Source: Acidimicrobiales bacterium (GTDB lineage Bacteria > Actinomycetota > Acidimicrobiia > Acidimicrobiales > DATDAH01). From it: a stretch of DNA of 64,000 nucleotides. Within the stretch, counting starts at the first letter, position 1. Every line of letters starts with the position of its first letter. The stretch covers positions 14,772 through 78,771 of the forward strand of contig JAYRFK010000060.1 in NCBI GenBank assembly GCA_041908445.1, written 5' to 3'. Below the pieces are notes generated by a model. The model made no database searches, was not told the DNA's origin, and saw only the letters and a program-made list of their open reading frames with translations. Of the stretch, positions 2,247-24,312 are shown one piece after another. The position numbers and the translations under genes were made by a program.

Positions 2247-2361
2247 CTGAGCTGTAGCCGCCGTTCTCCATGGCCGCGGGTGGGGACAGGCTCCTGTCGG
2301 ACGCGCCGGGACGGCCTTGAGCGGCGGGGTGGTCGGAGATCGCGCGCTGCGCGCGGGGAAC

Positions 2362-3435: not shown

Positions 3436-3540
3436 CGGGCGAACCTACCGCCGCACCCAGCCGTAAAGAGTGCTCCGGTCGGGCCGATAGGCGCAGGTCG
3501 CACCGGGCGACATCCCTGGGAGATCGAGGCCGAACCCGCC

Positions 3541-9474: not shown

Positions 9475-10465
9475 CGCGCCAGTAGCTGGACAGGTACGCC
9501 CACGGGACGAGGGCCGACACGGCGACGATCGGCAGCACGTCCCGCGGCCGCACGTCCTTGCGCCACACCAGTGCGCCGATGTTGCCCACCCAGCCCACGG
9601 CGATGCCCAGGAGCCCCAGGCGGGTCAGCCAGGGGCGGCGGGCCAGCACCCCCACGGCGGCCACCGCGGTGCTGCCCACGAACACCGCGGCGGCGTCGTG
9701 GCGGGCGCGGCGGAGGGTGATCGGGCCGACTCGGCGCGTGGCGTTCAGCGCCCGGAAGGCATCAGGGTGCTCGCGGTCCAGCAGGGGATCGAAGTAGTAG
9801 CGGCGGGCGAGCTTCACCGGCGTCCAGAACGACGGGGGCAGGGGCGGGTGCACGACCAGGAGCTCGGGCTCGTAGGCGAACCGCCGCCCCTCGGCCTCGA
9901 GCCGGAAGGCGAGCTCGGCGTCCTCGCGGAAGTGCACCCGGCGCGCCGGGTCGTAGAAGCGCTCGTCGAACCCGCCGGCCGCCCGCAGCACCTCGCTGCG
10001 GAAGATCAGGTTGGCCGCCACCCGCTGCTCCGGCGGCACCGCCTCGGTGGCGTGGGCGAACGGCGTGGCGGGCTCGTCGCCGCCGACGGCCATCCGGCCC
10101 TCGATCACGTCCGGCGGGTCCTCCACCGACACGATCTCGGTCAGCTGCTCGAGCCAGTCCGGCGCCGGGACCACGTCGGCGTCGAGGAAGGCGACCCACG
10201 GGGTGTCGACCAGCGCGAAGCCGGTGTTCCGCGACGCCCCGGGACCGCCGTTGCGGTCGCGGCGCACGACCTCGAGCACGAGGTGCTCGTACGCCCGCTC
10301 CTCGAGCCCCGCGGCGAGGGGCACGTCGTTGGCGTCGTCGACCACGACGACGCGGATGCTCGTGTCGGCCTCCTTCGCCTGCGGCTCGAGCGCGTCGAGG
10401 AGGGGGACGACGATGCCCAGCGAGCCGCGCACGGGGATGACGAGGGTGACGAGGGCCACCTCCAC
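9440..10465 (-). CDS. Glycosyltransferase family 2 (GT-A) with C-terminal TM segments
   Basis: VTLVIPVRGS...VVVVDDANDV...GGPGASRNTGFALVDTPWVAFLDADVVP (DXD) ...RED. Two or three C-terminal hydrophobic helices. GTG start. Confidence 0.75.
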   Translation of the reverse strand: MEVALVTLVIPVRGSLGIVVPLLDALEPQAKEADTSIRVVVVDDANDVPLAAGLEERAYEHLVLEVVRRDRNGGPGASRNTGFALVDTPWVAFLDADVVPAPDWLEQLTEIVSVEDPPDVIEGRMAVGGDEPATPFAHATEAVPPEQRVAANLIFRSEVLRAAGGFDERFYDPARRVHFREDAELAFRLEAEGRRFAYEPELLVVHPPLPPSFWTPVKLARRYYFDPLLDREHPDAFRALNATRRVGPITLRRARHDAAAVFVGSTAVAAVGVLARRPWLTRLGLLGIAVGWVGNIGALVWRKDVRPRDVLPIVAVSALVPWAYLSSYWRGVVHFRHRPRL

Positions 10466-10555
10466 CCATCGGATGCCACCGAGGGGGGTTGAGGGCCGGC
10501 GATGCGCACCCGCCCGGCCTCAACGGTGGCCCTCGGGGGCCGATGGGACGTGGAC

Positions 10556-12106
10556 ATGGCCCGTTCCCTCGCTGACGCGCCCGCGCCCGACGCGGCCACC
10601 ACCCCGGCCCGCCCCGACGGGCCGGCGTCACCCGAGCGCCCGTGGCCGGTGCGCCCCCGCACGGTCGCGGTCCTCGCGACCGTGCTGGCCGGCGCCCTGA
10701 GCCTGTTCCACCTGGGCCACAAGAGCTTCTGGCTCGACGAGGGCTACAGCATCGGGCACGCCCGCATGCCCTGGTCCGAGTTCTGGACGGTGCTCACCCA
10801 GCGCGAGCCCAACGGCGCCCTGCACGCCCTGGTCCTGTTCCCCTGGATCCGGGTCTCCGACGCCGAGTGGTGGCTGCGCCTCCCAAGTGCGCTGGCCCTG
10901 ACCGCGAGCGTGCCCGTGCTCTACCTCCTGGGCAGGCGCCTGTTCGGGGAACGGGTCGGCGCCACCGCGGCACTCCTGCTGGCCGTCAACGGCTTCGCCC
11001 TCCAGTTCGGCCAGGAGGTGCGCGCCTACGCCCTCGTCATGTTCGTCGGCACCCTGAGCACCCTGCTCTTCGTGGCCTTCGTCCAGGACGGCCGCAAGGG
11101 CCAGTGGTGGGCCTGGGTCGCGGTGTCGATCCTGCTCCCCTGGGCCCACCTCTTCGGCTGGCTCGTCCTCGGTGCGCAGGGGACGGCCGCGCTCCTGCGG
11201 GGACGATCGCTCCGCCGGCCCGTCGCCGGCCTCGTCGCCGGGTTCGCGCTCATCGGCGCGCTCGGCGGCATCGTGCTCGTGCTCATCGCGACCGGCGAGA
11301 GCAGCGGGCAGGCCGAGGGCATCCCCGGCGTCACCGTGGTGCGCTTCGTCGGCGTCTACGCCCGGGTCGCCGGCAACGCCGGCATCCCCCTCCTCGCGGT
11401 CTTCATGGCCCTCGGCGCGTACGTGGCCTGGGTCTACGGCCGACCGCTCGTCACCGGGCGCCCGTACCGGCCCACCGAGGCCGAGTGGGGCGTGCTCCTG
11501 CTGGCCGCCTGGCTCGCGCTGCCCACCGTCGCCATCGCGCTGCTCTCGCCCGTCCAGCCGCTCTTCGGGGCGCGCTACTTCATCATCCTCGTCCCCGCCG
11601 CGGCCACCCTCCTGGCCCTCGGCATCCACACGGTCCCGGCGGGCTGGGCGCGGCGGTGCACCGCGGTCGTGGTCGGCGCGCTCGTCGTGGCCGGGGCGGT
11701 CGGCTGGTACGTCCGGCCGCCGGCGGACGACATCCGGGGGGTCGCCCGCACCGTCGCCGCCGACGCCCGCACCGGCGACGCCATCGTGTTCCTCCCGTGG
11801 TTCGAGCAGCTCCCGTTCGACGCCTACGCCCTCCGCGACGCCCGCATCGACGACGACGTCCGGCCCCTGTGGCCCGACGCTCGGTGGGGGCACTTCGTGC
11901 CGGACCACCCGGACCACCCGACCAAGGCCGAGGTCGACGAGGCGGTCACCGGCACCGACCGGCTCTGGCTCGTCGTGCGCGACGACCGGGGCGAGGACGA
12001 CCAGCGCGACGTGGACGCCTACGTCGAGCGCCTGACGCGGGACCACGTCGAGGTGCGCCACGTCGACCTCGACGGGGTCGACGTGTACCTGTACGAGCGG
12101 GGCTGA
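10556..12106 (+). CDS. GT-C fold glycosyltransferase, ArnT/PMT_2-like (paralog 1)
   Basis: First-loop acidic motif SFWLDEGYS, then RLPSALALTASVPVLYLLGRRLF, at least 10 TM segments, and a soluble C-terminal domain of about 120 aa. Start ATG 10556 preferred over 10502. Confidence 0.75.
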   Translation: MARSLADAPAPDAATTPARPDGPASPERPWPVRPRTVAVLATVLAGALSLFHLGHKSFWLDEGYSIGHARMPWSEFWTVLTQREPNGALHALVLFPWIRVSDAEWWLRLPSALALTASVPVLYLLGRRLFGERVGATAALLLAVNGFALQFGQEVRAYALVMFVGTLSTLLFVAFVQDGRKGQWWAWVAVSILLPWAHLFGWLVLGAQGTAALLRGRSLRRPVAGLVAGFALIGALGGIVLVLIATGESSGQAEGIPGVTVVRFVGVYARVAGNAGIPLLAVFMALGAYVAWVYGRPLVTGRPYRPTEAEWGVLLLAAWLALPTVAIALLSPVQPLFGARYFIILVPAAATLLALGIHTVPAGWARRCTAVVVGALVVAGAVGWYVRPPADDIRGVARTVAADARTGDAIVFLPWFEQLPFDAYALRDARIDDDVRPLWPDARWGHFVPDHPDHPTKAEVDEAVTGTDRLWLVVRDDRGEDDQRDVDAYVERLTRDHVEVRHVDLDGVDVYLYERG

Positions 12107-12108
12107 CG

Positions 12109-13644
12109 GTGGACGTCCTGCACGCTCCGGCCGGCCCGACGACCGCGGACGCACCGGCGGGTGCCGTCGAGGAGGAGGTGACGGTTCCCCGCGCCCGCCT
12201 GCTCGTGGCCGTCGCGAGCGCGGTCGCCTTCGTGCTCGGCGTGGTCGAGCTCGGCACCGACAGCTTCTGGGTCGATGACGGCTTCACCCTGACCCACGCC
12301 CGCCTCGCCAACGCGGACTTCTTCCGTGTGATCGTCGACCACGAGATGAACGGCGCCCTGTTCACGACGCTGATGCACGGCTGGGTGCAGATCGGGCAGG
12401 GCGAGACCTGGATGCGCCTCCCGTCGGTCCTGTTCGCCACCGCCGTCGTCCCGGTCACGTACCTGCTGGCCCGCCGGCTGTTCGACCAGCGCGTCGGCGT
12501 CACCGCGGCGTTCCTCGTCGCCGTCAACGCCTTCGTGGTCGAGTACGCGCACGAGGCCCGCACCTACGCCATGACCCTGCTCCTCGCCACGAGCAGCGTC
12601 CTGTTGCTGGTCCGCTACCTGCAGGGACCGAGCCGCGGGCGGTGGGCGGCGTGGGCCGGCATCACGGCCCTGCTCCCGCTCGCCCACTTCTTCGGCCTGC
12701 TCGTGGTCGGCGCCGAGGTCGTGGCCGTCGTGCTCCGCGGCCGCCTGCCGACGCCACGCAAGGCGCTGGTCGGTGGCCTCGCGGTCGTGGGCCTCGCCAC
12801 CCTGCCGATCGTGTGGTTCCTCGCCGCCGGCGGGGACAAGGGCCAGGTCGACGGCGCGCCTGCGCTGACCCCCGTGCGCTTCGTGGGCACGTTCGTCCGC
12901 CTGGTCGGCAACGGGGGCCCGGTGCTGCTGCTCCTCGCCGTTGCCGCCATCGGCGCCGCCCTCTGGGACGCCGCCCGGCGCCACCGGGCCGCCGGCGGCC
13001 TCGACGAGCGGACCTGGGGCACCGTCCTGCTCGTGTCGTGGGTCGCCGTGCCGATCGCGACCATGGCCGTGGTCTCGGCGGTCAAGCCGCTCTTCGGCGC
13101 CCGCTACTTCCTGCTCGTCGCCCCCGGCTTGATCGTGCTGGTGGCGGCGGGCGTGTGGGCCCTCCCGTGGCGCCGGGCGGGGGTCGTCCTGCTCGGCCTC
13201 ATCGTCGCCGTGTCGCTGGTGGCGACGGCGTTCTTCTATCCACGCGACGCCCACGACGACTTCCGGGCCACCACCGCCTACGTCCTCGACCACGCCGCGG
13301 CCGGCGACGCCATCGTCTTCCAACCCTGGTTCACCCGGACCACCTTCGAGGTCTACGCCGGCCGGTCACCAGAGCGCCGGGACCAGCTCATCCCGCTCGA
13401 CCCCGATCCGGCCTGGGGTGACTGGCTCCTGATCGACCAGCCGCCCGAGCTCACGCCCGAGCGCGCCGAGGCGCTGCTCGAGGGCCACGACCGCATCTGG
13501 GTGCTCGAGCGGGCCGGCACCGAGGACGCTCCCCAGGCGAGCGACGCCGCGACCATGACCGACGCCCTCGTCGCCAACGGGTACACCGCGATCGACGAGC
13601 GCTCCTTCCCCGGCCTCGACGTCACCCTCTACCAGGGCGGCTGA
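12109..13644 (+). CDS. GT-C fold glycosyltransferase, ArnT/PMT_2-like (paralog 2)
   Basis: Colinear with paralog 1 (SFWVDDGFT, RLPSVLFATAVVPVTYLLARRLF, KPLFGARYFLLVAP versus QPLFGARYFIILVP). GTG 12109 lies 2 nt after the paralog 1 stop. The upstream part of the 1000-aa ORF is off-frame junk. Confidence 0.75.
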   Translation: MDVLHAPAGPTTADAPAGAVEEEVTVPRARLLVAVASAVAFVLGVVELGTDSFWVDDGFTLTHARLANADFFRVIVDHEMNGALFTTLMHGWVQIGQGETWMRLPSVLFATAVVPVTYLLARRLFDQRVGVTAAFLVAVNAFVVEYAHEARTYAMTLLLATSSVLLLVRYLQGPSRGRWAAWAGITALLPLAHFFGLLVVGAEVVAVVLRGRLPTPRKALVGGLAVVGLATLPIVWFLAAGGDKGQVDGAPALTPVRFVGTFVRLVGNGGPVLLLLAVAAIGAALWDAARRHRAAGGLDERTWGTVLLVSWVAVPIATMAVVSAVKPLFGARYFLLVAPGLIVLVAAGVWALPWRRAGVVLLGLIVAVSLVATAFFYPRDAHDDFRATTAYVLDHAAAGDAIVFQPWFTRTTFEVYAGRSPERRDQLIPLDPDPAWGDWLLIDQPPELTPERAEALLEGHDRIWVLERAGTEDAPQASDAATMTDALVANGYTAIDERSFPGLDVTLYQGG

Positions 13645-13662
13645 GACCGACCCGGTCGGCCC

Positions 13663-14808
13663 TCAGGGGGCCGGCGCCACGAGGTCGGCGACGACCGAGG
13701 CCACGGTCGGGGCGAACACGCCCCAGTCGTAGCGCTGCTCGACCAGGGCCCGCGCCGCCTTGGACAGCCGCTCGGCCAGGTCGTCGTCGATGAGCACGCG
13801 GACCGCCTGGGCGGCCAGGTCCGCCGCCGACTCGCCGAGGAGCAGGTGCTCGCCGTCGACCGCGTCGATGCCGGCGGCGCCGAGTGGGGTCGAAACCACC
13901 GGCGTGCCGGCGGCCATGGCCTCGAGGATCTTCAGGCGCGTGCCGCTCCCCGCCCGCAGCGGGACCACGAGGGCTCGCGCGTGGTGCAGGCACGGGAGCA
14001 CGTCGTCGACCGCGCCCGACACGGCGACGCCGGCGCCCGCCAGGGCCCGGACCGCGTCGGTGGGGTTGCGGCCGACCAGCCCGACCGTGACGTCGGGGAC
14101 GGCCTCGCGCACCCTGGGCAGCACGTCGGTGACCAGCTCGACCGCGGCGGCCTCGTTGGGGCGGTAGCCGTACTGGCCCACGTAGAGCAGCTCACGGTGC
14201 TCACCGGGTGGGGCGTAGGCCACGGCGTCGGTGTCGACCCCGTTGGGCACGACCTCGACGCGGGTGACCCCCCAGCTGCGGAACACGTCGGCGTCGGCGT
14301 CGCTGGTGGCGAGCACGGCGGCCGAGGCGCGGACGGCACCACGCTCGACGCGGCCCATCTTGGCCGCCTCCCAGCGCCAGCGGAGGCGGTGGAGGAGGCG
14401 CTCGTCGGTCCGGGCGAGGGTGGCCATGATGTCCGTCTCGACGTTGTGGGCGTCCAGCACGACGGGGGCACCCGCCGCACCGACCAGGTCCACGAAGAAC
14501 GGTGACGACGCCACGACCAGGTCCCACGCGCCGTCACGGGCCAGCTCGGTGAGCCCGGGTGAGTCGAGCAGGGCGGCGAGGTAGGGCCGCCGCCACGAGC
14601 GCACCAGGGCCCGCCGGCGCGAGAAGTCGTGCTCGACGCCGACCAGCCGGAACGGCTCGTCGTGGTCGACCGGCGCCTCCCCCAGCGCCGCCACCGTCAC
14701 GTCGCCGACGCGGGCGAGCAGCCGGGCCAGGTGCAGGACCCGCAACCGGTAGCCGCCGTGGGGCGGCACCGGCGACTCGTACGAGCAGACCAGGATGCGG
14801 GGCGCCAA
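13663..14808 (-). CDS. Glycosyltransferase, GT-B fold, family 4-like
   Basis: RILVCSYESP...GGY start typical of GT4, and C-terminal VVPLRAGSGTRLKILEAMAAGTPVVSTPLGAAG. Proposed TTG start at 14808, 5 nt after the upstream stop. The start is the least certain part. Confidence 0.7.
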   Translation of the reverse strand: MAPRILVCSYESPVPPHGGYRLRVLHLARLLARVGDVTVAALGEAPVDHDEPFRLVGVEHDFSRRRALVRSWRRPYLAALLDSPGLTELARDGAWDLVVASSPFFVDLVGAAGAPVVLDAHNVETDIMATLARTDERLLHRLRWRWEAAKMGRVERGAVRASAAVLATSDADADVFRSWGVTRVEVVPNGVDTDAVAYAPPGEHRELLYVGQYGYRPNEAAAVELVTDVLPRVREAVPDVTVGLVGRNPTDAVRALAGAGVAVSGAVDDVLPCLHHARALVVPLRAGSGTRLKILEAMAAGTPVVSTPLGAAGIDAVDGEHLLLGESAADLAAQAVRVLIDDDLAERLSKAARALVEQRYDWGVFAPTVASVVADLVAPAP

Positions 14809-14813
14809 CGGAG

Positions 14814-15902
14814 CTACCAGCCCCGGGAGCGCTGCTGCTCCTTGTAGGTGGCGGTGCTCAGGTGGAACAGCTCCTCGAAGTAGCGCTTCTGCTGGAACGA
14901 CATGATGCCCAGCGTGAGGAGCTGCACGGCGATGACGAGGGTGAAGCCGCTCACGAAGTAGGCGTGGGGACGCTCGTCGAAGGTGTTGGCGAAGGCCGCG
15001 GACATCCGGGGCTCGAAGCTGCCGGCCAGGCTCGAGTACTCGTGGAGGATGTTGTAGCTGAGCCAGCCGAGGTTGTAGAGGGCGAAGGCGAGGATGAGCA
15101 GGCCGGGGATGATGAAGAAGGCCACGGGCCGGAACATGAACCCCGAGAAGGCGTAGCCCGAGGTGCTCTTGCCGATCTGGAGCTTCGACTCCCGCTCGGG
15201 CATCGACGACTGGCCGGTCCAGTCGAGGTGGGCGGGCACCTCCACGACCCGGGCGTTCAGCAGCTGGGCCTTGTAGATGATCTCGGTGTTGATGTCGGTG
15301 CCCATCGAGCGCAGGCTCAGGCTCGACAGGAAGGGCCGGTCGTAGGCCCGCACCATGCCGGTGAGGGTCGAGAGGTTGCCGCCCGACGACGCCGACAGGA
15401 ACCGGTTGGCGCCCTTGCTCAGGAACCGCCGGCCGAACGGGATGCCCGTCGTCTGGCCGCCCTTCATGTACGGCGAGGCGACGGCGATCTTGGCGTGGTC
15501 CTCGCGGAGGCGGGACAGCAGCAGGCCGATGTGCTCGGGGGCGTAGCTGAGGTCGCAGTCGATGGTGACGACGTAGTCGCCCCGGCACGTGTTGAACGCG
15601 AAGCGCAGGGCCTGGCCCAGGCGGAAGTTCACCGCGTGGTGCAGCACCCGGACCTCGGGGCGGGTCGAGGCGAAGGCCTCGGCGATGGCACCGGTCTCGT
15701 CGGAGCTGCCGTCGTTGACGACGACGAGCTCCCAGTCGTACTCGTCGCTCAGGGCCTGCAGGTAGGCGTAGAGCTGGGTGAGCGACTCCATGAGGATGAG
15801 GGCCTCGTTGTAGGCCGGCACCACCACGGAGACGAAGGGCCGCTTCCCCTCGGGGCGCGGCTCGTCGAGGTCGGGGTCGACGGCATGGTCGAGGGCGGTC
15901 AC
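14814..15902 (-). CDS. GT2 polyprenyl-phosphate glycosyltransferase (ArnC / GtrB / DPM1-like) with C-terminal TM hairpin
   Basis: VSVVVPAYNEALIL...ELVVVNDGSSDETG...YVVTIDCDLSY (DXD)...RAYDR, followed by two hydrophobic helices (FRPVAFFIIPGLLILAFALY, YFVSGFTLVIAVQLLTLGIMSF). This layout is typical of lipid-phosphate sugar synthases. Confidence 0.8.
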   Translation of the reverse strand: MTALDHAVDPDLDEPRPEGKRPFVSVVVPAYNEALILMESLTQLYAYLQALSDEYDWELVVVNDGSSDETGAIAEAFASTRPEVRVLHHAVNFRLGQALRFAFNTCRGDYVVTIDCDLSYAPEHIGLLLSRLREDHAKIAVASPYMKGGQTTGIPFGRRFLSKGANRFLSASSGGNLSTLTGMVRAYDRPFLSSLSLRSMGTDINTEIIYKAQLLNARVVEVPAHLDWTGQSSMPERESKLQIGKSTSGYAFSGFMFRPVAFFIIPGLLILAFALYNLGWLSYNILHEYSSLAGSFEPRMSAAFANTFDERPHAYFVSGFTLVIAVQLLTLGIMSFQQKRYFEELFHLSTATYKEQQRSRGW

Positions 15903-15912
15903 CGGTCCGACC

Positions 15913-16917
15913 TCACGCCGCCGGGGCCGTCTCGGTGGCGAAGCGCGGCGTGACGACGTCCAGGCCGCCGCGCCGCTCGATGTCGTCCACGTGGTCCCGC
16001 ATCGTCACCACCTCGAACTGCTCGCGGAGCTGGTCGACGAACTGCCCGACCAGCTCGGTCTTGGCCTCGCCGGCCATCCCCATCGCGGGGAAGAAGGCCA
16101 GCTCCGCCACGTCGTCGGCGCCGAGGAAGTCCAGCGGGTGCAGGAGGATCGACGGCTCCACCTTCCGGAGTCGGCACAGGCGCAGGGCAGTTGAGAAGTA
16201 GGCCCGGGCCAGCGCCGGGCGCACGCCCGCCAGGTAGAGCAGGTAGCTGACGTGGATGGGCACCCGCCCCATCGGCAGGGTGGTCACCGGCAGCTCCGTG
16301 AGCATCCCGTCGGCGACCCGCCACCGGTACGGCCGGATCGAGCGCAGGCCGTCGCTCCAGGTGCCGAACAGCTCGGAGCGCTCGGCCATCTGCTCCTCGG
16401 TGAGCTTGGACGCCCGGAAGTAGTAGGCCCGGGCGAGGGGGCCGATCACCGTCGGCAGGGTCGAGGCGTCGTAGCGGTAGCCCCGCTCCACGAGCACCTC
16501 GAGGGTGCTCGTGGAGAGGCTGTAGCCGGGCCCGCGGAACCCGATGGTCCGCTCCCCCGTCGCCTCGGCGATGGCGTCCTCGGCGCGGGCGAGCTCGTCG
16601 ACGAGCTCGTCGCGCTCGTAGAGGTGCAGCCACGGCTCGTGGCGGAACGAGTGGTTCCCGATCTCGTGGCCGGCGGCCGACAGCGAGGCCAGCGCCTCGC
16701 GGTTCTCGGGGAGGGACGCGTCCTTGCCCACCACGAAGAACGTGATGGTCAGGTCGCGGGCGGCGAGGAAGTCGAGCACCCGGGGGGCGAGCACGTCGAG
16801 GTAGGAGCCGTAGCGGTCCCACCCGGCGTCGCCGTGGGTCTTCTGGTACGACCAGAGGTTGTCGGCGTCCAGCGAGAGGCTGGCGATCGGCTTCCCCGAG
16901 CGGTGGGGGGTGGTCAT
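15913..16917 (-). CDS. Polysaccharide deacetylase family (CE4/NodB-like), no signal peptide
   Basis: SLDADN (Asp motif), TFFVVG, GHEIGNHSFRH (His-His metal motif), GFRGPGYS. The N-terminus has no signal or TM segment. ATGA overlap with the upstream gene. Confidence 0.8.
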   Translation of the reverse strand: MTTPHRSGKPIASLSLDADNLWSYQKTHGDAGWDRYGSYLDVLAPRVLDFLAARDLTITFFVVGKDASLPENREALASLSAAGHEIGNHSFRHEPWLHLYERDELVDELARAEDAIAEATGERTIGFRGPGYSLSTSTLEVLVERGYRYDASTLPTVIGPLARAYYFRASKLTEEQMAERSELFGTWSDGLRSIRPYRWRVADGMLTELPVTTLPMGRVPIHVSYLLYLAGVRPALARAYFSTALRLCRLRKVEPSILLHPLDFLGADDVAELAFFPAMGMAGEAKTELVGQFVDQLREQFEVVTMRDHVDDIERRGGLDVVTPRFATETAPAA

Positions 16918-18269
16918 GCGGGCACCGCCTCCGTGCGGGATCCCTCGGCGTCGGCGATCAGCGCCGCGGCCTCGTCGGCGAGGCCGAGGGTGTCGTCGAC
17001 GTTGAGGGTGGCGTGCACCAGGTCGGCCGAGCCCACCAGGTAGAGGCCGGGGACCGACGTGACGATCGGCGGCACCCGGTCGGAGTAGTCGATGGTGGGC
17101 ACGGCGAACACGAGGCGGGCCCGTGACACCCGGCGGGCCACGACGTCGTCGTCGCCCAGGGCGGGGTGCATCCGCTGCAGGTACGGCCAGAAGGCGTCGT
17201 GCACCTCGTCGTCGGTGGCGTCGAGGAGCGGGTCGTCGGGCGCCACGTACTTCGGCAGGTACACCAACGTGTGACCGCCGACCTCGGCCGGGTCGATGAG
17301 CGAGGTCATCTCGACCACGGCCGTGAACGGGGTGCCCGGGTCGGTGATGTTGGTCAGGTAGTACGGCGCCAGCGGTCGGCGCAGCACGAGCGACTCGCAG
17401 ACGATCCCCTGGTAGGTGACGCCGTCGAGGCGGCCGCGCTCGTCGTCGTCCAGGTCGGGGCAGAGGCGCGACGCCAGCGGTGCCGCCGTGGTGACCACGA
17501 CCCGGTCCACCGTCTCGTCACCCGTCGGCGTGGCGAGCACGAAGCCGTCGCCGTCGCGGCGGATCGACCCGACCGGGCAGCCGGTGCGGAGCTCGACGCC
17601 CTCGGCGCGGAGGTGGGCGGCGAAGGCGTCGATGGTGCGGGCGTACCCGCCGTGGACGTAGCCGAACAGCTCCTTCTTCAGGCCGCTGCGGCGCGCCGCG
17701 TAGAGGCGCTGGATGGTGGCCCAGATGAACGCCGCCGACGCCTCCCGGTGGCTGTCGCCCAGCTTGGCCCGCAGCAGGGGCAGCCAGAAGCGCTCGAACG
17801 TGCGCCCACCCGACCAGCGCCGCAGCCAGTCGTCCACCCCGATGCGCTCCATGCGCCGGCCGTCGCGGATGCGCGAGCCGTAGAGGATGGTGCCGCCGAG
17901 GCGGACCTTGTCGACCAGGCCGAGCGGCGGGAAGCGCAGGAACTCGATCGCGTTCGAGACCGAGTAGAGCTCGCCGTCGGCGTAGCAGCCGGTCCGGGTC
18001 TCGACCCACCGGACCTCGTCCTCGAGACCGAGGTCGGTGAGCAGGCCGCGGGTGCGCAGATCGGACAGGAGGGTCACGTGGTAGTAGCGGTCCCAGGTGA
18101 TGCGCTCGCCGCCGGGAAGGTCGATGGACCAGGCCGAGGCGAGGCCCCCGAGGTCGTCGGCGCCCTCGTAGAGGGTGACGGCGTGGCCCTCGGCGCGCAG
18201 GCGCCGGGCCACCGAGAGGCCGAGGACGCCGCCGCCCACCACCGCCCACCGCTGGACGGTGTCGCTCAC
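16914..18269 (-). CDS. FAD/NAD(P)-binding oxidoreductase (amine-oxidase / phytoene-desaturase-like Rossmann family)
   Basis: N-terminal dinucleotide fold WAVVGGGVLGLSVARRLRAEGHAVTLYEGADDLGGLA. GTG start at 18269 overlaps the upstream stop (GTGA). Confidence 0.7.
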   Translation of the reverse strand: MSDTVQRWAVVGGGVLGLSVARRLRAEGHAVTLYEGADDLGGLASAWSIDLPGGERITWDRYYHVTLLSDLRTRGLLTDLGLEDEVRWVETRTGCYADGELYSVSNAIEFLRFPPLGLVDKVRLGGTILYGSRIRDGRRMERIGVDDWLRRWSGGRTFERFWLPLLRAKLGDSHREASAAFIWATIQRLYAARRSGLKKELFGYVHGGYARTIDAFAAHLRAEGVELRTGCPVGSIRRDGDGFVLATPTGDETVDRVVVTTAAPLASRLCPDLDDDERGRLDGVTYQGIVCESLVLRRPLAPYYLTNITDPGTPFTAVVEMTSLIDPAEVGGHTLVYLPKYVAPDDPLLDATDDEVHDAFWPYLQRMHPALGDDDVVARRVSRARLVFAVPTIDYSDRVPPIVTSVPGLYLVGSADLVHATLNVDDTLGLADEAAALIADAEGSRTEAVPA

Positions 18270-18886
18270 GGGTCGAGCTCCTTCACGCGCCCCTCGGTCA
18301 CCGCGTAGCGGCGGCCGCAGGCGGCGCAGTCGAGGTCCTCGTGGTCGCCGAGGGGCTCGCCGGGCCGGATCCGCAGCACGGGCGGGCCGCAGCGGCACAC
18401 CAACCCGATCGTCACGGCGGGCACGCCGGCCACCAGGTGGAAGTCGGGGACGTCACGGGTCACCACCGAGCCGGCGGCGACCATCGAGAACCGGCCGAGG
18501 TCGACCCCGGGGCCGATCACGGCACGGGCGCCGATGGTCGTGCCGGCGCCCACGAGGGTGCTCGTGGTGTCCTCGTCGGGGTCCGACGGCCGCAGCTCGG
18601 CCAGGTCCGGGGTGGTCGCCCGGGGGTAGCGGTCGTTGGTGAACACCGTGCCGGCGCTGATCATCACGCCGTCCTCGATCGTGATCCCGGTGCACACGTA
18701 CACGAACGCGTTGATCTTGACCCGGTCGCCGATCTCGACGCCGTAGGCGACGTAGCTCTTCTCCCCGATGATGCAGTCCCGGCCGATGCGGGACGGGCCC
18801 CGCAGGTGGACGTTGTCCCACACCGCCGTGCCCTCACCGAGGACGACGCCGTCCTCGACGAGCGCGCTCGGGTGGACGCGGGCCAT
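18266..18886 (-). CDS. Left-handed beta-helix (hexapeptide) sugar N-acetyltransferase, WbpD/WlbB-like, with Cys4 C-terminal tail
   Basis: Hexapeptide repeats (VHPSALVEDGVVLGEGTAVWDNVHLRG..IGRDCIIGEKSYV..VEIGDRVKINAFVYV..) and a tail CRCG-x20-CAAC. Start ATG 18886 (MARVHPS) preferred over 18919. Confidence 0.8.
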   Translation of the reverse strand: MARVHPSALVEDGVVLGEGTAVWDNVHLRGPSRIGRDCIIGEKSYVAYGVEIGDRVKINAFVYVCTGITIEDGVMISAGTVFTNDRYPRATTPDLAELRPSDPDEDTTSTLVGAGTTIGARAVIGPGVDLGRFSMVAAGSVVTRDVPDFHLVAGVPAVTIGLVCRCGPPVLRIRPGEPLGDHEDLDCAACGRRYAVTEGRVKELDP

Positions 18887-18899
18887 CAACGGCGCACCA

Positions 18900-19946
18900 T
18901 CAGGCGGCGCTGCCGCCACGCGCCCGCGTGCCGACCATCGCGTCGACGGGGGCGGGGACGGGCACCCAGTGGTCGGCGGCCAGCGACGCGTAGGCCTGCT
19001 CGATGACCGCCACCGACGCCAGCGCGTCCTCGGCGGTGATGAGCAGCGGCTCCTCGCCGCGGATGGCGTGGCAGAAGTTCCGCACCGCGCCGCCCATGGC
19101 CTCGACCTTGTCGTAGCCCTTGCCGAACGAGACCCAGTCGGTGCTCGCCACCTGCCGGAAGCTGGAGCTGCGCCACCCCACGCGGATCTCGCCCTCCGTG
19201 CCGAAGATGGCGATGTAGTGGTCGAGGCTCTTGTCCATGCTCCACGACAGGTCGATGCTGCCGATCACGTCCTCGACGGAGCGCAGGAAGACCCGGACGG
19301 TGTCCTCGACCTCGAGGGCCTGGGTGCGCTTGCCCTCCACGGCCATGACCTCGCCGATGGGCCCGAGGAAGAAGCGGGCGATGTCCACCGAGTGGGTGCC
19401 GTTGTCGATGAGGACGCCGCCGCCGGCGATGCGCGGGTCGGCGTTCCACCGCCCCGACATGTCGACGCGCGACGTGAAGGCGTTCTCGAACAGGAGCAGG
19501 TCGCCGAGGATCCCCGACTCCACGATGTGGCGGGCCCGGGTGACGTCGTCCGCGAAGCGGAACTTGGCCGCCATGGTGAGGATGACGCCGGCCTGGTCGG
19601 CGGCCTCGATCATCGTGCGGGCGGTCTCGGCGTCCACCGCCAGCGGCTTCTCGCAGAGCACGTGGATGCCCCGCTGGAGGAACTCGAGCGCGATGGGCCC
19701 GTGGGTCGCCGGCGGTGTGGCGATCACGACGCCGGCGGGCTCCATGGCCTCGAGGAGCGCGCGGTGCGACGAGAACGACCGGGCGTCGCCGAAGCGGCGG
19801 GCGAGGCGCGCCGCGGCGGCCTCGTCCACGTCGGCCACGGCCACGATCTCGACGCAGTCGGACGCGGCGACCACGTCCACGTAGGACTGGGCGATGCGCC
19901 CGGCCCCGACGAGGGCGAGGGGCAGCTTGGACGGTGCGGCGGGCAT
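18900..19946 (-). CDS. Gfo/Idh/MocA-family NAD-dependent sugar oxidoreductase (WbpB/WlbA/GnnA-like)
   Basis: LALVGAGRIAQSYV..., EKPLA motif (HVLCEKPLAVD), GGGVLIDNGTHSVD. ATG 19946 shares 1 nt with the upstream stop (TGATG). Confidence 0.85.
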   Translation of the reverse strand: MPAAPSKLPLALVGAGRIAQSYVDVVAASDCVEIVAVADVDEAAAARLARRFGDARSFSSHRALLEAMEPAGVVIATPPATHGPIALEFLQRGIHVLCEKPLAVDAETARTMIEAADQAGVILTMAAKFRFADDVTRARHIVESGILGDLLLFENAFTSRVDMSGRWNADPRIAGGGVLIDNGTHSVDIARFFLGPIGEVMAVEGKRTQALEVEDTVRVFLRSVEDVIGSIDLSWSMDKSLDHYIAIFGTEGEIRVGWRSSSFRQVASTDWVSFGKGYDKVEAMGGAVRNFCHAIRGEEPLLITAEDALASVAVIEQAYASLAADHWVPVPAPVDAMVGTRARGGSAA

Positions 19947-21163
19947 CAGGCCTCCCGGTTCAGCTCGGCCACGGCGCCGGTCAGCGCGCCGGCGAGGTGG
20001 TCCACGTGGTCGTCGGTGAAGCGCTCGTTCCAGGGCAGGACGAGCACGGAGGACAGGTAGGCGAAGGTGCCGGGGAAGCGCTCCTCCGCGTAGTCGACCG
20101 CCTCGGGACGGGCGAGGGTGAACGGCCAGCGGCTGTCGCCGAAGGTGCGCTGGTCGGCGATCACCTTGCAGCGGAAGGCCGGCTTCTGGATGTACCGGGG
20201 CGCCGAGGGCACCTCGACCTCCCGCAGCGCGGCGGCGAGGGCGTCCGGGCCACCGGGCAGGTGCTCGGGATCGACGTGCAGGGCGTAGCGCCAGTAGACC
20301 GCGGTGTCGCTCGGCGCCGCCTCCGGGGTGACGATGGCGTCGACCCCGGCAAGCTGCTTGGTCAGCCGGTCCGCCGCGGCGATGCGGCGGTCGACCCCGT
20401 CGGCCAGCTTGGCCAGCTGGGCCCGTCCGACGGCGCTCGCCAGCTCGGTGGTGCGGTAGTTGAGGGCGAGGAACTCGTGGTCGGGGTTCGCCTCGCCGTA
20501 GGGCCACGCCTTGTTCACGAAGACCCGCATGCGCCGGGCCAGGTCGGCGTCCGCCGTCACCACGAAGCCGCCCTCACCGGTGGTGATGTGCTTGCCCTGC
20601 TGGAGGCTGAAGCAGCCGATGGCACCGACGGTGCCGACGAGGTCGTCGCCGTGGCGGGCCAGGTAGGCCTGGGCGCAGTCCTCGATGACCGGGATCCCCC
20701 GGGCGTCGGCCAGGGCCATGATCGGCCCCATGTCGCAGGGGTTGCCGAAGAGGTGGGTGACGATGATCGCCCTGGTGCGCTCGCTCAGGACCGCCTCGAT
20801 CGTCGCCGCGGTGACGTTGCCGGTGCGGGCATCGACGTCGGCGAACACCGGGATGGCGCCCTGGTAGAGGATCGGGCTGATGGCGCCCATGTCGGTGATC
20901 GACGTGGTGACGATCTCGTCACCCGGTTCGGGGTCGAGCGCGGCGACGGCGGTGTGCACCGCGGCCGTGCCGGACGCCAGCGCCACCGCGTGGGGCATGC
21001 CGAAGGTGTCCGCCACCTCGGCCTCGAACCGGGGGGTCTGCGCCCCCTTCGTCGCGGTCAGCGTGCCGGACCGGATGACCTCGGTCAGCAGGGCCAGCTC
21101 TTCGTCGCCGAGCGTCCGCCCTGACGCGGCTTGATCTGAGGGGAGTTCCACGGGCGTGCTCAC
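19946..21163 (-). CDS. DegT/DnrJ/EryC1/StrS-family PLP-dependent sugar aminotransferase (WbpE/WlbC/GnnB/ArnB class)
   Basis: FEAEVADTFGMPHAVALASGTAAVHTAV..., IVTHLFGNPCDM, CFSLQQGKHITTGEGG (PLP lysine). Start proposed at GTG 21163; upstream codons are off-composition. Confidence 0.85.
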   Translation of the reverse strand: MSTPVELPSDQAASGRTLGDEELALLTEVIRSGTLTATKGAQTPRFEAEVADTFGMPHAVALASGTAAVHTAVAALDPEPGDEIVTTSITDMGAISPILYQGAIPVFADVDARTGNVTAATIEAVLSERTRAIIVTHLFGNPCDMGPIMALADARGIPVIEDCAQAYLARHGDDLVGTVGAIGCFSLQQGKHITTGEGGFVVTADADLARRMRVFVNKAWPYGEANPDHEFLALNYRTTELASAVGRAQLAKLADGVDRRIAAADRLTKQLAGVDAIVTPEAAPSDTAVYWRYALHVDPEHLPGGPDALAAALREVEVPSAPRYIQKPAFRCKVIADQRTFGDSRWPFTLARPEAVDYAEERFPGTFAYLSSVLVLPWNERFTDDHVDHLAGALTGAVAELNREA

Positions 21164-21197: not shown

Positions 21198-22340
21198 ATG
21201 GACCGGCGCCGCCACAATGGCCGCGTGAGCCTCGACCACACCGGCCGGGTGGCCGTCGTCCTCGGCACCCGGCCCGAGATCGTGAAGCTGGCCGCCCTCG
21301 TGCGGCTCCTCGGCGACCGTGCCTGGGTGGTGCACACGGGCCAGCACTACGACGCCACCCTGTCCGACGTCTTCTTCGCCCAGTTCGGCCTGCAACCCCC
21401 CACCGACGCCCTCGACGTGGGCGGGCGGACCCGCGGCGCGCAGATCGGCGAGGCCACGGCCGCACTCGACGCCCTCTTCGGCGACGAGCGGCCCACCGCC
21501 GTGGTCGTGCAGGGCGACACCAACAGCGCGCTCGCGGGTGCCCTGGCCGCGAACGCCCGCGAGGTGCCCCTGGTGCACCTCGAGGCCGGGCTGCGCAGCC
21601 ACGACCGGGCCATGCCCGAGGAGCACAACCGGGTGCTCGTCGACCACGTCGCCGACCTCTGCCTGGCCCCCACCGAGACCAGCCGGGAGAACCTCCTCGC
21701 CGAGGGCATCCCCGACGAGCGCATCGAGGTGACGGGGAACACCGTGGTCGAGGCCGTCCTCGAGCTTCTACCCGGCGACGACGAGCGGGCCGCCCTGCTC
21801 GCCGACCACGGCGTGACCCGGGACGGCTTCGTGCTCTCGACCTTCCACCGCCCCGAGAACGTCGACGACCCCGACCGGCTCCGCGTGATCCTCGAGCAGC
21901 TCGTGGCGCTCGACGTGCCGGTGGTCCTGCCCGTCCACCCCCGCCTGGCGGCGCGGGTCGAGGCCTTCGGCCTCGGCGACCAGCTGGCCCGGCTGCGGCC
22001 CGTCGACCCGCTCGGCTACCGGGAGTTCCTCGGGCTGTTCGCGGAGGCGGCGCTGGCGGTCTCCGACTCCGGGGGTGTGCAGGAGGAGGCCAGCGTGGTG
22101 AAGCGACCGGTCGTCGTGGTCCGGCGCTCCACCGAGCGCCCCGAGGTCCTCGGCACGTTCTCGGCGCTGGCCGCCGTCGGCCCGGGGATCGGCGCCGCCG
22201 CGGCCCGGTGGCTCGCAGATCCCGCGGCCGCCCACGCCGAGCTCGCCGCCCTCCCGTCGCCGTACGGTGCTGGCGACGCCGGGCAGCGGTCGATCGACGC
22301 GATGGCGCGCCTGCACCTGATCGCCCCGTCCGGGAAATAG
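21198..22340 (+). CDS. wecB: UDP-N-acetylglucosamine 2-epimerase family (non-hydrolysing; WecB/MnaA/WbpI-like)
   Basis: VLGTRPEIVKLAALV..HTGQHYD...VQGDTNSALAGALAA..VHLEAGLRS...PEEHNR...DSGGVQEEA. An alternative GTG start is at 21225. Confidence 0.85.
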   Translation: MDRRRHNGRVSLDHTGRVAVVLGTRPEIVKLAALVRLLGDRAWVVHTGQHYDATLSDVFFAQFGLQPPTDALDVGGRTRGAQIGEATAALDALFGDERPTAVVVQGDTNSALAGALAANAREVPLVHLEAGLRSHDRAMPEEHNRVLVDHVADLCLAPTETSRENLLAEGIPDERIEVTGNTVVEAVLELLPGDDERAALLADHGVTRDGFVLSTFHRPENVDDPDRLRVILEQLVALDVPVVLPVHPRLAARVEAFGLGDQLARLRPVDPLGYREFLGLFAEAALAVSDSGGVQEEASVVKRPVVVVRRSTERPEVLGTFSALAAVGPGIGAAAARWLADPAAAHAELAALPSPYGAGDAGQRSIDAMARLHLIAPSGK

Positions 22341-23857: not shown

Positions 23858-24154
23858 TCAGGCGGGCGTGTGGGCGTCGCGGCGGCGCTTGCCCACCACG
23901 ACGAGGCCGGCGCCGGTGACCAGCACCGCGCCGCCCACGAGGGCCAGCTTCTCGGTGTTGTCCGAGCCGGTGCGGGGCAGCTGGTTGCTGACCTGGGCCC
24001 GCTGGACGGAGGTGGGCGTGGTCGACGGCGTCGGGTAGTCCTGCGCCGCCACGGGGCCGGCCACCCCCAGCGTCAGCAGCAGAGCGAGCCCGCCGGCCGC
24101 CACGATCGCCCGGAGCGGGCGAATCTTCGAAAATCGCTCAAGGTGCGAGGCCAT
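23858..24154 (-). CDS. Very small LPXTG cell-wall-anchored protein (98 aa precursor)
   Basis: Signal peptide MASHLERFSKIRPLRAIVAAGGLALLLTLGVAGPVAAQ, then a short Ser/Thr/Pro segment. The sorting signal is LPRTG plus hydrophobic LALVGGAVLVTGAGLVVVG plus KRRRD. RBS AAGGGA lies 9 nt before ATG 24154. Confidence 0.7.
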   Translation of the reverse strand: MASHLERFSKIRPLRAIVAAGGLALLLTLGVAGPVAAQDYPTPSTTPTSVQRAQVSNQLPRTGSDNTEKLALVGGAVLVTGAGLVVVGKRRRDAHTPA

Positions 24155-24312
24155 GGTGACGATCCCTTTGCAGGTCGTGGTCTGTGTTCCACCCAGACCG
24201 TACACCTGCCGCCGTCGTTCCGCCACCCTGAGTGAGAAATTCATTCACCTCGCGCGTTCGTGTGCCGAGGGACCCCGCCTCGTGGTGACCGACCTCCCCC
24301 GCGGCCGGGGGG

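Follow-up and report, generated by a model that had tools for sequence, protein, structure and literature searches.

A seven-gene operon within a polysaccharide locus

The 64,000-nt stretch of DNA analyzed here (hereafter the window) comes from an Acidimicrobiales bacterium (assembly GCA_041908445.1, contig JAYRFK010000060.1, positions 14,772 to 78,771) and carries, at 13663-21163 on the minus strand, an operon of seven genes. In order of transcription these encode a sugar aminotransferase (DegT), a sugar dehydrogenase (Gfo), a left-handed beta-helix N-acetyltransferase (LbH), a flavin adenine dinucleotide-dependent oxidoreductase (FAD), a CE4 de-N-acetylase, a family 2 glycosyltransferase (GT2) and a family 4 glycosyltransferase (GT4). 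The gene set suggests a pathway in which an amino sugar would be made, loaded onto a lipid, tailored there and attached to a glycan outside the cytoplasm. Gene models were taken from a frame plot of GC content at third codon positions (GC3) together with an open reading frame (ORF) scorer, and domains were assigned with Pfam and NCBIfam. The window has a GC content of 73-74%, and coding is unbroken from ~10.5 kb to 23.7 kb. An initial annotation of this DNA, made by eye from the letters and translations, had counted eight genes while naming seven; the GC3 and ORF calls give seven. The enzyme classes it had assigned agreed with the Pfam and NCBIfam results for every gene of the operon.

The genes are closely packed. 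The DegT stop and the Gfo ATG have one base in common at 19946 (TGATG), LbH and FAD overlap by 4 nt at 18266-18269 (GTGA), and FAD and CE4 overlap by 4 nt at 16914-16917 (ATGA). The remaining junctions are gaps of 13 nt (Gfo/LbH, with the ATG at 18886), 10 nt (CE4/GT2) and 5 nt (GT2/GT4). At the distal end, the GT4 stop (13663) lies 18 nt from the stop (13644) of the second of two convergent genes for GT-C glycosyltransferases, which are themselves separated by 2 nt. All of these overlaps and gaps, and the convergent end, had been described correctly. Tight packing by itself is ordinary in a high-GC operon; what goes beyond chance is that the gene set and its order are kept across phyla. Scans for promoter and terminator consensus sequences were uninformative in this 73% GC DNA.

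Conservation of the cassette across phyla

Relatives of the CE4 protein were sought in one genome per species and were found in at least 580 species; the locus counts given below refer to the best 80 species loci. These loci come from Acidobacteriota (36), Planctomycetota (17), Cyanobacteria (7), Actinomycetota (6), Pseudomonadota (6) and Gemmatimonadota (2), with one each from Nitrospirota, Myxococcota, Methylomirabilota and Binatota and 2 that are unclassified. DegT, Gfo, LbH, FAD and CE4 are collinear, in that order, in 45/60 loci. The conserved unit is a six-gene cassette of DegT, Gfo, LbH, FAD, CE4 and GT2, with FAD-CE4-GT2 as its core. This cassette is widespread and mobile, and the ~10 phyla that carry it are mostly diderm. 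The idea that the system is specific to Gram-positive-type organisms had to be abandoned, as 72 of the 80 best loci belong to phyla other than Actinomycetota, against 6 in Actinomycetota and 2 unclassified.

The nearest locus belongs to a Microthrixaceae metagenome-assembled genome (MAG; Acidimicrobiia, Actinomycetota), whose CE4 protein is 91% identical to that of the window and in which the whole arrangement is syntenic, both GT-C genes included. GT4 (13663..14808, minus strand) has the domains Glyco_trans_1_4 and Glyco_transf_4 and scores 187 bits with TIGR03087 stp1, under the cut-off; it turned up in just two relatives, L006 and L007 of the Acidimicrobiales, and is a lineage-specific gene outside the conserved cassette. 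Other Actinomycetota contigs (L004, L016) have a self-contained FAD-CE4-GT2 trio distant from sugar-nucleotide and polysaccharide genes. Because this trio stands alone, its acceptor would be a generally available lipid. PEP-CTERM or Wza/Wzz polysaccharide loci can also harbour related cassettes (L086). Between phyla, the CE4 and FAD proteins retain 55-67% identity and thus appear to be under strong constraint, with a function that is probably important. A literature search returned nothing relevant on the cassette, on the PRK07233 family to which the FAD protein belongs, or on fusions of a deacetylase with an amine oxidase. The Actinoplanes wps/gsf and Rubrivivax psc clusters were considered as instances of the cassette and set aside, their gene sets being different.

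A probable 2,3-diacetamido-sugar module

The first three genes of the operon, and a fourth that diverges from it, resemble the known routes to 2,3-diacetamido sugars. DegT (19946..21163, minus strand; PF01041, 275 bits) is a pyridoxal phosphate-dependent aminotransferase of the DegT/DnrJ/EryC1 family and comes first in both operon and cassette; its homologues in other phyla hold the same position with 54-66% identity. In the PDB it comes closest to a generic sugar aminotransferase and to perosamine synthetase, not to 3-aminotransferases in particular, and similarity gives no regiospecificity. Gfo (18900..19946, minus strand; PF01408, PF22725, PF02894) is an NAD-dependent dehydrogenase of the Gfo/Idh/MocA family. 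It scores 125 bits with the NCBIfam model of the archaeal uridine diphosphate N-acetylglucosamine (UDP-GlcNAc) 3-dehydrogenase, under the cut-off of 450, and 136 bits with an inositol dehydrogenase model; its PDB matches include 3q2k and 3q2i, which we take to be WlbA. On these similarities, Gfo is probably a UDP-GlcNAc 3-dehydrogenase.

LbH (18266..18886, minus strand; Hexapep repeats; alternative GTG start at 18919) gives the most specific match of the three. Its best solved relative is the Bordetella 3-N-acetyltransferase WlbB (3mqg/3mqh; 117 bits), aligned over the full length (residues 1-200 with 3-188); QdtC and WxcM-like proteins, which rank next, are likewise N-acetyltransferases of 3-amino sugars. 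LbH thus has the character of a WlbB/WbpD-type 3-N-acetyltransferase of the 2,3-diacetamido-sugar pathway. The synteny of Gfo and DegT with it is the reason for placing their putative chemistry at C3. The divergent gene (21198..22340, plus strand) encodes a non-hydrolysing UDP-GlcNAc 2-epimerase of the WecB/WbpI type (TIGR00236, 285 bits; cut-off 210), and roughly one locus in two has such a gene beside the cassette. DegT, Gfo and LbH, together with the WecB-like enzyme, are best read as a pathway to UDP-GlcNAc3NAc (or the corresponding ManNAc3NAc), an assignment by homology and gene order. Since the cassette has no UDP-GlcNAc 6-dehydrogenase, the product is probably a neutral sugar and not a uronic acid. 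The 3-amino-sugar chemistry with acetyl that had been proposed at the outset is supported by the full-length WlbB match of LbH and by the similarity of Gfo to WlbA-like enzymes and the archaeal 3-dehydrogenase model.

A cytoplasmic CE4 deacetylase

The CE4 gene (15913..16917, minus strand) encodes a NodB-fold de-N-acetylase (PF01522, 68 bits) in which a hydropathy and sequence check found neither a signal peptide nor a transmembrane (TM) segment. The residues expected of an active CE4 metallo-deacetylase (the Asp-Asp pair, the His-His pair, the Arg and the catalytic His) are in place: D17 and D19 (SLDxDN), H89-S-F-R-H93, R128-G-P130 and L259-H260 are invariant in 21 homologues. More than 8000 homologues were found, and with identities of 55-70% across phyla they form a distinct, highly conserved clade. 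An AlphaFold model (pLDDT 86) searched with Foldseek gave 3rxz of M. smegmatis, HP0310 of H. pylori and PuuE as the best fold matches.

The comparison with ArnD, the deacylase that the initial annotation had chosen as a model, held in part. ArnD (8t0j) ranks 12 among the fold matches (E = 2.5e-9, TM-scores 0.51/0.62, 12% identity), behind 3rxz, HP0310, BA3943, 3s6o and PuuE, and it was not found in single-sequence or family-profile searches of PDB sequences at E <= 0.01. The two enzymes have only the fold in common, and CE4 was rejected as an ArnD orthologue at the level of sequence. As modeled, CE4 would act in the same compartment as ArnD and with the same fold, yet it is no ArnD. The expectation that it would stand apart from the secreted deacetylases of peptidoglycan or xylan was correct: CE4 was rejected as a secreted peptidoglycan, xylan or chitin deacetylase on the absence of a signal peptide, on its nearest relatives, which are intracellular-type CE4 proteins, and on the lower scores of the PgdA and PdaA types. 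Synteny with GT2 and the gene fusions described below lend indirect support to the view that CE4 acts on an N-acylated amino sugar linked to polyprenyl phosphate.

A flavoenzyme is the obligate partner of CE4

Directly upstream of CE4 lies the FAD gene (16914..18269, minus strand), whose product has the amine oxidase/protoporphyrinogen oxidase (PPO)/phytoene desaturase fold and belongs to PRK07233, an unnamed NCBIfam family (NF005560, 446 bits; cut-off 252). Further matches are PF01593 (111 bits) and HpnE of the squalene pathway (101 bits), the nearest curated family. In Foldseek searches with the AlphaFold model (pLDDT 88.5), the top matches were PPO/CgoX and plant phytoene desaturase (TM-scores 0.78-0.81), followed by soluble amine oxidases. 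PPO, the coproporphyrinogen oxidases and phytoene desaturase act on lipophilic substrates and are monotopic membrane enzymes. Of the 71 loci with sufficient upstream sequence, 68 have the FAD gene, which stands directly upstream of CE4 in 47; FAD is the closest, obligate partner of CE4.

The two proteins also occur as one. In L010, an Actinomycetes MAG, a single ORF of 795 residues (8582-10969, plus strand) has 59% identity to the FAD protein of the window at residues 8-439 and 63% to its CE4 protein at residues 474-793. A database search with this fusion returned ~85 distinct clusters of FAD-CE4 fusions of 750-845 residues, down to 44% identity. The FAD-CE4 fusion is natural and recurrent. 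Source databases annotate these fusions (P0241-P0320 and others) only as 'protoporphyrinogen oxidase' or 'FAD-dependent oxidoreductase'. A longer fusion, P0311 in L088 (9001-12792, plus strand), joins Gfo, LbH, FAD and CE4 in a single 1263-aa ORF on a long-read contig of 3x coverage, and may be an assembly artefact.

Three reactions are candidates for the FAD enzyme. Once the lipid-linked sugar has been de-N-acetylated, the enzyme could oxidise its amine or one of its hydroxyls, by analogy with homologues of DprE1; it could carry out redox chemistry on the polyprenyl chain; or it could act at the level of the nucleotide sugar. Three other roles were considered and rejected. An enzyme that recycles 2-hydroxyglutarate for a WbpB-type dehydrogenase would not be expected to travel with CE4 and GT2 in loci without Gfo and DegT, as FAD does; a ring contraction like that of UDP-galactopyranose mutase does not fit a protein without a GLF domain; and carotenoid or hopanoid glycosylation, suggested by the likeness to HpnE and phytoene desaturase, found no terpenoid genes in any locus inspected. 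In Pyrinomonadaceae/Blastocatellia, further genes follow CE4 (L046 11042-12361, L014 11085-12584 and L033 12700-13551, all on the plus strand), among them a second flavoenzyme of the amine-oxidase fold with faint GLF similarity, a fusion of a sugar-1-phosphate nucleotidyltransferase with a GT2, and S-adenosylmethionine-dependent methyltransferases.

A probable polyprenyl-phosphate sugar synthase

GT2 (14814..15902, minus strand) has a GT-A domain (PF00535, 115 bits, residues 25-192) with a DxD motif (D114-C-D116), followed by two hydrophobic segments (~257-284 and 314-336) that form a C-terminal TM hairpin, a feature also of 13/13 distinct orthologues from other loci. The best PDB matches are Pyrococcus DPMS (5mlz, 69 bits), ArnC (54) and GtrB (41), aligned through residue 225, and the top NCBIfam matches include ArnC, PgfS, PpgS and AglJ, all under cut-off. 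GT2 has the GT-A/DxD domain, the C-terminal TM segments and the nearest relatives of polyprenyl-phosphate sugar synthases, the type to which the initial annotation had referred it, and it is a probable polyprenyl-phosphate amino-sugar synthase of ArnC/GtrB/DPMS/PpgS architecture. With scores of 61 bits against a curated cut-off of 529 for ArnC, 54 against 370 for PpgS and 59 against 500 for PgfS, it is the orthologue of no named synthase. A Ppm1/DPMS-type mannose synthase was considered and rejected: DPMS is the top solved match, yet its 69 bits are on a par with ArnC, PgfS and PpgS. Synteny is the reason for favouring an amino sugar as the substrate.

A GT2 is present in 39 of the 44 full-length loci, as an orthologue with the TM hairpin in 7 and, in 32, as a TM-less protein that combines an ArnC/PpgS-like GT2 with a second, XrtA-system-type deacetylase and is encoded just upstream of DegT. 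In all, 38 loci from Acidobacteriota, Planctomycetota and Proteobacteria have this fusion of a second deacetylase with a GT2 (e.g., L023 3589-5298, plus strand; TIGR03006 and DUF3473), so that two deacetylases would be at hand for a sugar with two N-acetyl groups. The fusion protein, while devoid of a TM helix, ends in a conserved basic amphipathic helix (SKMK..RTI.GHLRLL).

GT-C glycosyltransferases accompany the cassette

The two genes that converge on the operon encode polytopic PMT_2 proteins. GT-C1 (10502..12106, plus strand; start possibly at the ATG at 10556) scores 34.9 bits with PF13231 (cut-off 26.1) and 82 bits with an MT1671-type model, and has a FWLDEG motif and ~10 hydrophobic segments; GT-C2 (12109..13644, plus strand) scores 36.2 bits with PF13231 against the same cut-off and 66 bits with the MT1671-type model, and has a FWVDDG motif in the first loop and ~11 hydrophobic segments. 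Both align over ~380 residues with this model of mycobacterial MT1671/Rv1635c-type mannosyltransferases, which use polyprenyl-phosphate-mannose as donor. A PMT_2 score above the gathering cut-off, a polytopic architecture and an acidic first-loop motif place both among the PMT_2/ArnT-like GT-C enzymes. The class assigned to them initially was therefore right, while a specific match to ArnT, PMT or EmbC was not obtained: the pair has no PDB sequence relative at E <= 1, and neither an ArnT nor an Emb model was among the NCBIfam matches.

The pair is kept in L006 and L007 (58-79% identity) and also in L010, where cassette, GT2 and both GT-C genes are all co-directional. Across the 80 loci, a hidden Markov model (HMM) built from the PMT_2 proteins of these loci found 46 PMT_2-type GT-C genes in 34 loci. 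The genes lie downstream of CE4 in 44 of 46 cases, although downstream sequence makes up just 49% of what was available (p = 7e-12), and on the CE4 strand in 39 of 46 (p = 2e-6), binomial p-values that overstate independence, as the loci are phylogenetically related. The median distance from CE4 is 2.4 kb, and several GT-C genes start <150 nt away. Other loci have PMT_2 proteins under the HMM threshold, one YfhO-type GT-C, or unclassified polytopic proteins of 500-660 residues adjoining CE4. Non-conservation of the GT2-CE4-GT-C neighbourhood had been named in advance as a ground for giving up the proposal; the neighbourhood is conserved, although its GT-C component varies and went undetected in some loci.

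The cassette of L087 is followed by genes for a PMT_2 protein and a Wzx protein. Divergent from the cassette in L088 (3080-7392, minus strand) are genes for a sulfotransferase, two small EamA-type proteins and an 866-aa PMT_2 GT-C; the EamA-type pair (124 and 102 aa, 3-4 TM segments each) is ArnE/ArnF-like. In a Myxococcota MAG (L001 10981-14467, plus strand), the genes after CE4 encode a 660-aa sulfatase/LtaS-like protein and a HAD-UbiA fusion. Such a fusion is the hallmark of polyprenyl-phosphate pentofuranose donor synthesis, and suggests a second lipid-linked donor pathway in that locus.

A proposed route for extracytoplasmic glycan decoration

We consider it somewhat probable that the cassette serves an extracytoplasmic glycan decoration in the manner of three-component systems, in which UDP-GlcNAc3NAc would be loaded onto a lipid, tailored by CE4 and FAD, flipped, and transferred by a GT-C. 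By homology to WlbA, WlbC and WlbB, UDP-GlcNAc would be oxidised at C3 by Gfo, aminated by DegT and N-acetylated by LbH; the resulting UDP-GlcNAc3NAc may be 2-epimerised by the divergent WecB-like enzyme. GT2, to judge by its architecture and nearest relatives, would then move the sugar to polyprenyl phosphate at the cytoplasmic face of the membrane. There, as synteny and fusions suggest, the cytoplasmic CE4 and FAD enzymes would tailor the sugar, most likely in its lipid-linked form, with CE4 taking off one N-acetyl group and FAD performing a further redox step on the exposed amine, on a neighbouring hydroxyl or on the carrier lipid. Finally, the lipid-linked sugar would be flipped, and the two PMT_2 GT-C enzymes would pass it to a surface acceptor, either the polysaccharide made by the Wzx/Wzy locus around the operon or a different one. 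The observations behind this route are gene content, domain identities, intact catalytic motifs, features of membrane topology, and the conservation and fusions seen across phyla; the steps themselves are deduced.

Deacetylation at the lipid stage is indicated indirectly, because the FAD-CE4-GT2 trio stands alone, deacetylases are fused to GT2, FAD has the fold of membrane enzymes, and related pathways follow a rule of transfer first. In the reports on NaxD (PMC10927774), GpgD (PMC11483062) and the mycobacterial galactosamine (GalN) pathway (PMC9671496), deacetylation of the N-acetyl-hexosamine comes after its transfer. For redox tailoring of lipid-linked donors there is a precedent in the DprE1/E2 homologues of three-component systems (PMC11127046).

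As a tentative extension, which we hold to be possible but doubtful, FAD and CE4 may together be an unrecognised bifunctional tailoring enzyme of lipid-linked sugars that couples de-N-acetylation to flavin redox chemistry (oxidation of an amine or hydroxyl, with a quinone acceptor like DprE1, or modification of the carrier); its product would be an undescribed sugar or donor lipid and, with GT2 and the GT-C enzymes, it would constitute a new route in ~10 phyla. Since the FAD enzyme is so tightly tied to CE4, the end sugar may not be a simple free amine. A free-amine, cationic end product is plausible but uncertain, and hangs on the FAD chemistry. The Arn-like interpretation first given to this DNA is the best supported of the readings, but the cationic free amine that it predicted is not secured, and it gave the FAD enzyme no role.

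Several observations weigh against the route proposed here. The scores of GT2 lie far under the curated cut-offs, so that its sugar and acceptor specificity is putative. The redox step given to FAD is conjectural, and if the amine released by CE4 were oxidised by FAD, the product would not be cationic. A GT-C of a confidently assigned family accompanies just about half of the full-length loci (20/44, plus two), and the relatedness of the loci qualifies the positional bias noted above. No candidate for a GtrA/ArnEF/GtcA-type flippase was found, with no small multi-TM ORF of coding-like GC3 anywhere in the window, as had already been remarked in the initial annotation; the window lacks the small flippase of three-component systems, and a Wzx gene is present at 7591-9414. 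The Gfo-LbH-FAD-CE4 fusion P0311, a possible artefact, fits tailoring at the UDP-sugar stage.

Alternative explanations

Tailoring at that earlier stage is the alternative that fares best, though we regard it as unlikely. The soluble DegT, Gfo, LbH, CE4 and FAD enzymes would act on UDP-GlcNAc to give an uncommon UDP-sugar (one way would be de-N-acetylation, after which the flavin could oxidise the amine to an imine or a keto function), and GT2 would merely load the finished sugar onto a lipid carrier or glycan; a free amine is not required. The five genes are indeed collinear and often translationally coupled, none of their products has a TM segment, FAD-CE4 fusions are frequent, and the P0311 polypeptide ties CE4 and FAD to known UDP-sugar enzymes. 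That four-domain fusion, however, is the sole one of its kind and comes from the 3x long-read contig. The FAD-CE4-GT2 trio, moreover, exists without DegT, Gfo and LbH, where a CE4 acting on nucleotide sugars would need a central metabolite such as UDP-GlcNAc. The FAD fold is nearest to monotopic membrane enzymes with lipophilic substrates (PPO, phytoene desaturase), and GT2 itself is fused to the second deacetylase in the 38 loci. We also count against early tailoring that the characterised pathways known to us (LpxC, PIG-L, MshB, NaxD, GpgD) all deacetylate only after transfer.

The operon might also take part in ordinary cytoplasmic assembly of a repeat unit, which we judge improbable. GT2 and GT4 would put the diacetamido sugar on a unit linked to undecaprenyl diphosphate, CE4 would remove part of its N-acetyl groups, and the GT-C genes would be unrelated. 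Partial de-N-acetylation of an intermediate at the cytoplasmic face has reportedly been proposed for the Caulobacter holdfast enzyme HfsH. The setting favours such an assembly, as the Wzx/Wzy/Wzz locus around the operon is complete and includes a priming transferase besides several GT4 and GT2 genes, GT4 follows GT2 in the same operon, and the related cassettes of PEP-CTERM or Wza/Wzz loci (L086) are similarly placed. GT4, however, is not conserved with the cassette, and in L004 the FAD-CE4-GT2 trio has no polysaccharide genes within 10 kb. GT2 has the architecture and nearest relatives of polyprenyl-monophosphate sugar synthases, and the position and strand bias of GT-C genes directly downstream of CE4 across phyla would go unexplained.

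Very improbable is a third possibility, that the lipid-linked product is itself the end product, a membrane aminoglycolipid that changes surface charge in the manner of the GlcN-phosphatidylglycerol made by GpgS/GpgD/GpgF, and not a GT-C donor: glycosyltransferase and deacetylase operons that make cationic glycolipids are known (PMC11483062) and stand-alone FAD-CE4-GT2 trios occur without a recognised GT-C within 10 kb (L004, L059), but the cassette has GT-C genes beside it in the window and in no fewer than 34/80 loci, GT2 resembles polyprenyl-phosphate sugar synthases and not GpgS (a GpgS-type model matches just the C-terminus of GT4, at 45 bits), and no MprF/GpgF-type flippase is present.

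Comparison with known systems

The lipid-linked route proposed for the cassette has its closest parallel in the Arn pathway, by which 4-amino-arabinose is added to lipid A. The order of events is the same: oxidation of a UDP-sugar, transamination by a DegT-class enzyme, transient N-acylation, loading onto undecaprenyl phosphate by a GT2, cytoplasmic deacylation by an enzyme of the CE4 fold and transfer by a PMT_2/ArnT-like GT-C. ArnC is among the best matches of GT2, which has similar C-terminal TM helices, and ArnD has its fold in common with CE4. The predicted chemistry differs, with amination at C3 of a hexosamine and an acetyl group here, in place of amination at C4 of a pentose and a formyl group in Arn. 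A Gfo/Idh/MocA dehydrogenase replaces ArnA, CE4 is not an ArnD orthologue, and an extra, obligate FAD enzyme is present; the window lacks ArnE/F, and the acceptor is not lipid A.

The initial annotation knew of no characterised actinobacterial equivalent; one exists in the addition of GalN to arabinogalactan in M. tuberculosis and C. glutamicum (PpgS/Rv3631, Rv3632, Rv3779). In that system, a GT2 makes polyprenyl-phosphate-GalNAc, which is de-N-acetylated and flipped before a GT-C adds the free-amine sugar, and the deacetylase and flippase are still unidentified (PMC9671496). The likeness extends to the PpgS model, which aligns with the entire GT2 of the window at 54 bits; this is well short of the cut-off of 370, and GT2 is no orthologue. 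The GalN system, in contrast to the cassette, has neither a DegT/Gfo/LbH module nor a flavoenzyme.

Modifications of lipid A with hexosamines follow similar logic. In the FlmF2/FlmK systems of Francisella and Acinetobacter and in LgmABC of Bordetella, an ArnC-like GT2 loads the hexosamine and an ArnT-like GT-C transfers it to lipid A; the deacetylase NaxD belongs to the YdjC family and not to CE4. Lipid loading of an N-acetyl-hexosamine, deacetylation on the lipid and GT-C transfer are what these systems have in common with the route proposed here, whereas 3-amino chemistry and a flavoenzyme are absent from them and their acceptor is lipid A. Reports on NaxD describe an N-acetyl-hexosamine on undecaprenyl phosphate (undecaprenyl-phosphate-GalNAc) that is de-N-acetylated there (PMC10927774; PMC8149597).

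In three-component systems (GtrA/GtrB/Gtr*, CsbB/GtcA/YfhO, GacI-L and the pentofuranose systems), a lipid-phosphate sugar synthase and a GT-C decorate O-antigens, teichoic acids and wall polysaccharides (PMC11127046; PMC13390465). The cassette has the same pairing of synthase and GT-C, and the one related locus with a YfhO-type GT-C belongs here. Those systems usually move an unmodified common sugar and have a small flippase, whereas the cassette adds an amino-sugar pathway, a deacetylase and a flavoenzyme of the PPO/phytoene desaturase fold, with no flippase found in the window. Finally, the same three classes as DegT, Gfo and LbH, with a WecB/WbpI-like 2-epimerase, make up the WbpB/WbpE/WbpD pathway of Pseudomonas, the WlbA/WlbC/WlbB pathway of Bordetella and the archaeal UDP-GlcNAc3NAc pathway; LbH is nearest to WlbB, and Gfo is related to WlbA and to the archaeal UDP-GlcNAc 3-dehydrogenase. 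Those pathways feed ordinary cytoplasmic glycosyltransferases and have no CE4, FAD or TM-anchored GT2, and the UDP-GlcNAc 6-dehydrogenase is missing from the cassette. The overall concept is thus known already from Arn, NaxD/Lgm, PpgS-dependent GalN addition and the three-component frame; what differs is the 2,3-diacetamido-sugar module, the distinct CE4 clade, the obligate and often fused flavoenzyme, and the packaging as a cassette over ~10 phyla.

If the proposed route is correct, the strategy of making an N-acylated amino sugar, parking it on a lipid, unmasking it and attaching it outside would be far commoner than recognised: a portable cassette would carry the logic of Arn and mycobacterial GalN addition in the genomes of at least 580 species, from phyla of soil, water and sludge. 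The CE4 clade would be a candidate family for lipid-stage de-N-acetylation, the step left unassigned in the Mycobacterium/Corynebacterium pathway, and the FAD-CE4 pair might point to where the missing deacetylase of mycobacterial-type wall modification can be sought. The conserved flavoenzyme partner has no counterpart in described pathways of this kind, and could lead to new sugar or carrier-lipid chemistry. The host is a relative of the Microthrixaceae, which are known from activated sludge; its surface charge and its wall or exopolysaccharide properties would be affected by the cassette.

The surrounding locus

The operon lies within a Wzx/Wzy-type polysaccharide locus, whose genes at 786..10465 were assigned by Pfam: a priming Bac_transf (786-2246), GT4 genes, Wzz with a BY-kinase (3541-5034), a Wzy-like protein (5031-6536), Wzx (7591-9414) and a further GT2 (9440-10465, minus strand). 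This locus is the likely source of the acceptor glycan. Its GT2 has three C-terminal hydrophobic segments, diverges from GT-C1 and is 79-88% identical in Acidimicrobiales relatives. A role as a second lipid-phosphate sugar synthase, serving the second GT-C, was considered for it and rejected, the N-terminal domain of chondroitin synthase being its sole match. Genes for a DUF4012 protein (24313-26037) and a low-molecular-weight phosphotyrosine phosphatase (27823-28524) lie on the opposite side of the operon from the Wzx/Wzy genes.

The Gram-positive-type context of the host was confirmed. The window encodes a LytR-CpsA-Psr (LCP) wall-glycopolymer ligase (57269-58723, minus strand; PF03816, 113 bits, and LytR_C) and a small secreted sortase substrate of 128 aa (23858-24244, minus strand), in whose translation an LPRTG motif, a hydrophobic stretch and a KRRRD tail can be read; because both are present, the envelope should be monoderm. 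The gene for the LPRTG protein has a secreted glycoside hydrolase gene on one side and, on the other, the DUF4012 gene belonging to the polysaccharide locus. This hydrolase (22424-23728, plus strand) directly follows the WecB-like gene, has a weak Glyco_hydro_cc match and a Thr/Pro-rich C-terminal linker, and may trim or remodel the polysaccharide of the locus; a cellulase-like gene also adjoins WecB in L087.

Three further proteins were noticed in the window. A polytopic DUF2079 membrane protein (49553-51028, plus strand; 216 bits), of a family thought to be GT-C-like, is encoded among amino-acid biosynthesis genes distant from the polysaccharide locus. Two large proteins are without an LPXTG motif: a secreted protein of 1260 aa with NHL, PD40 and CarboxypepD_reg repeats (41579-45361, plus strand) and an M36 (fungalysin)-like protease of 965 aa with a P-domain (30774-33671, plus strand).

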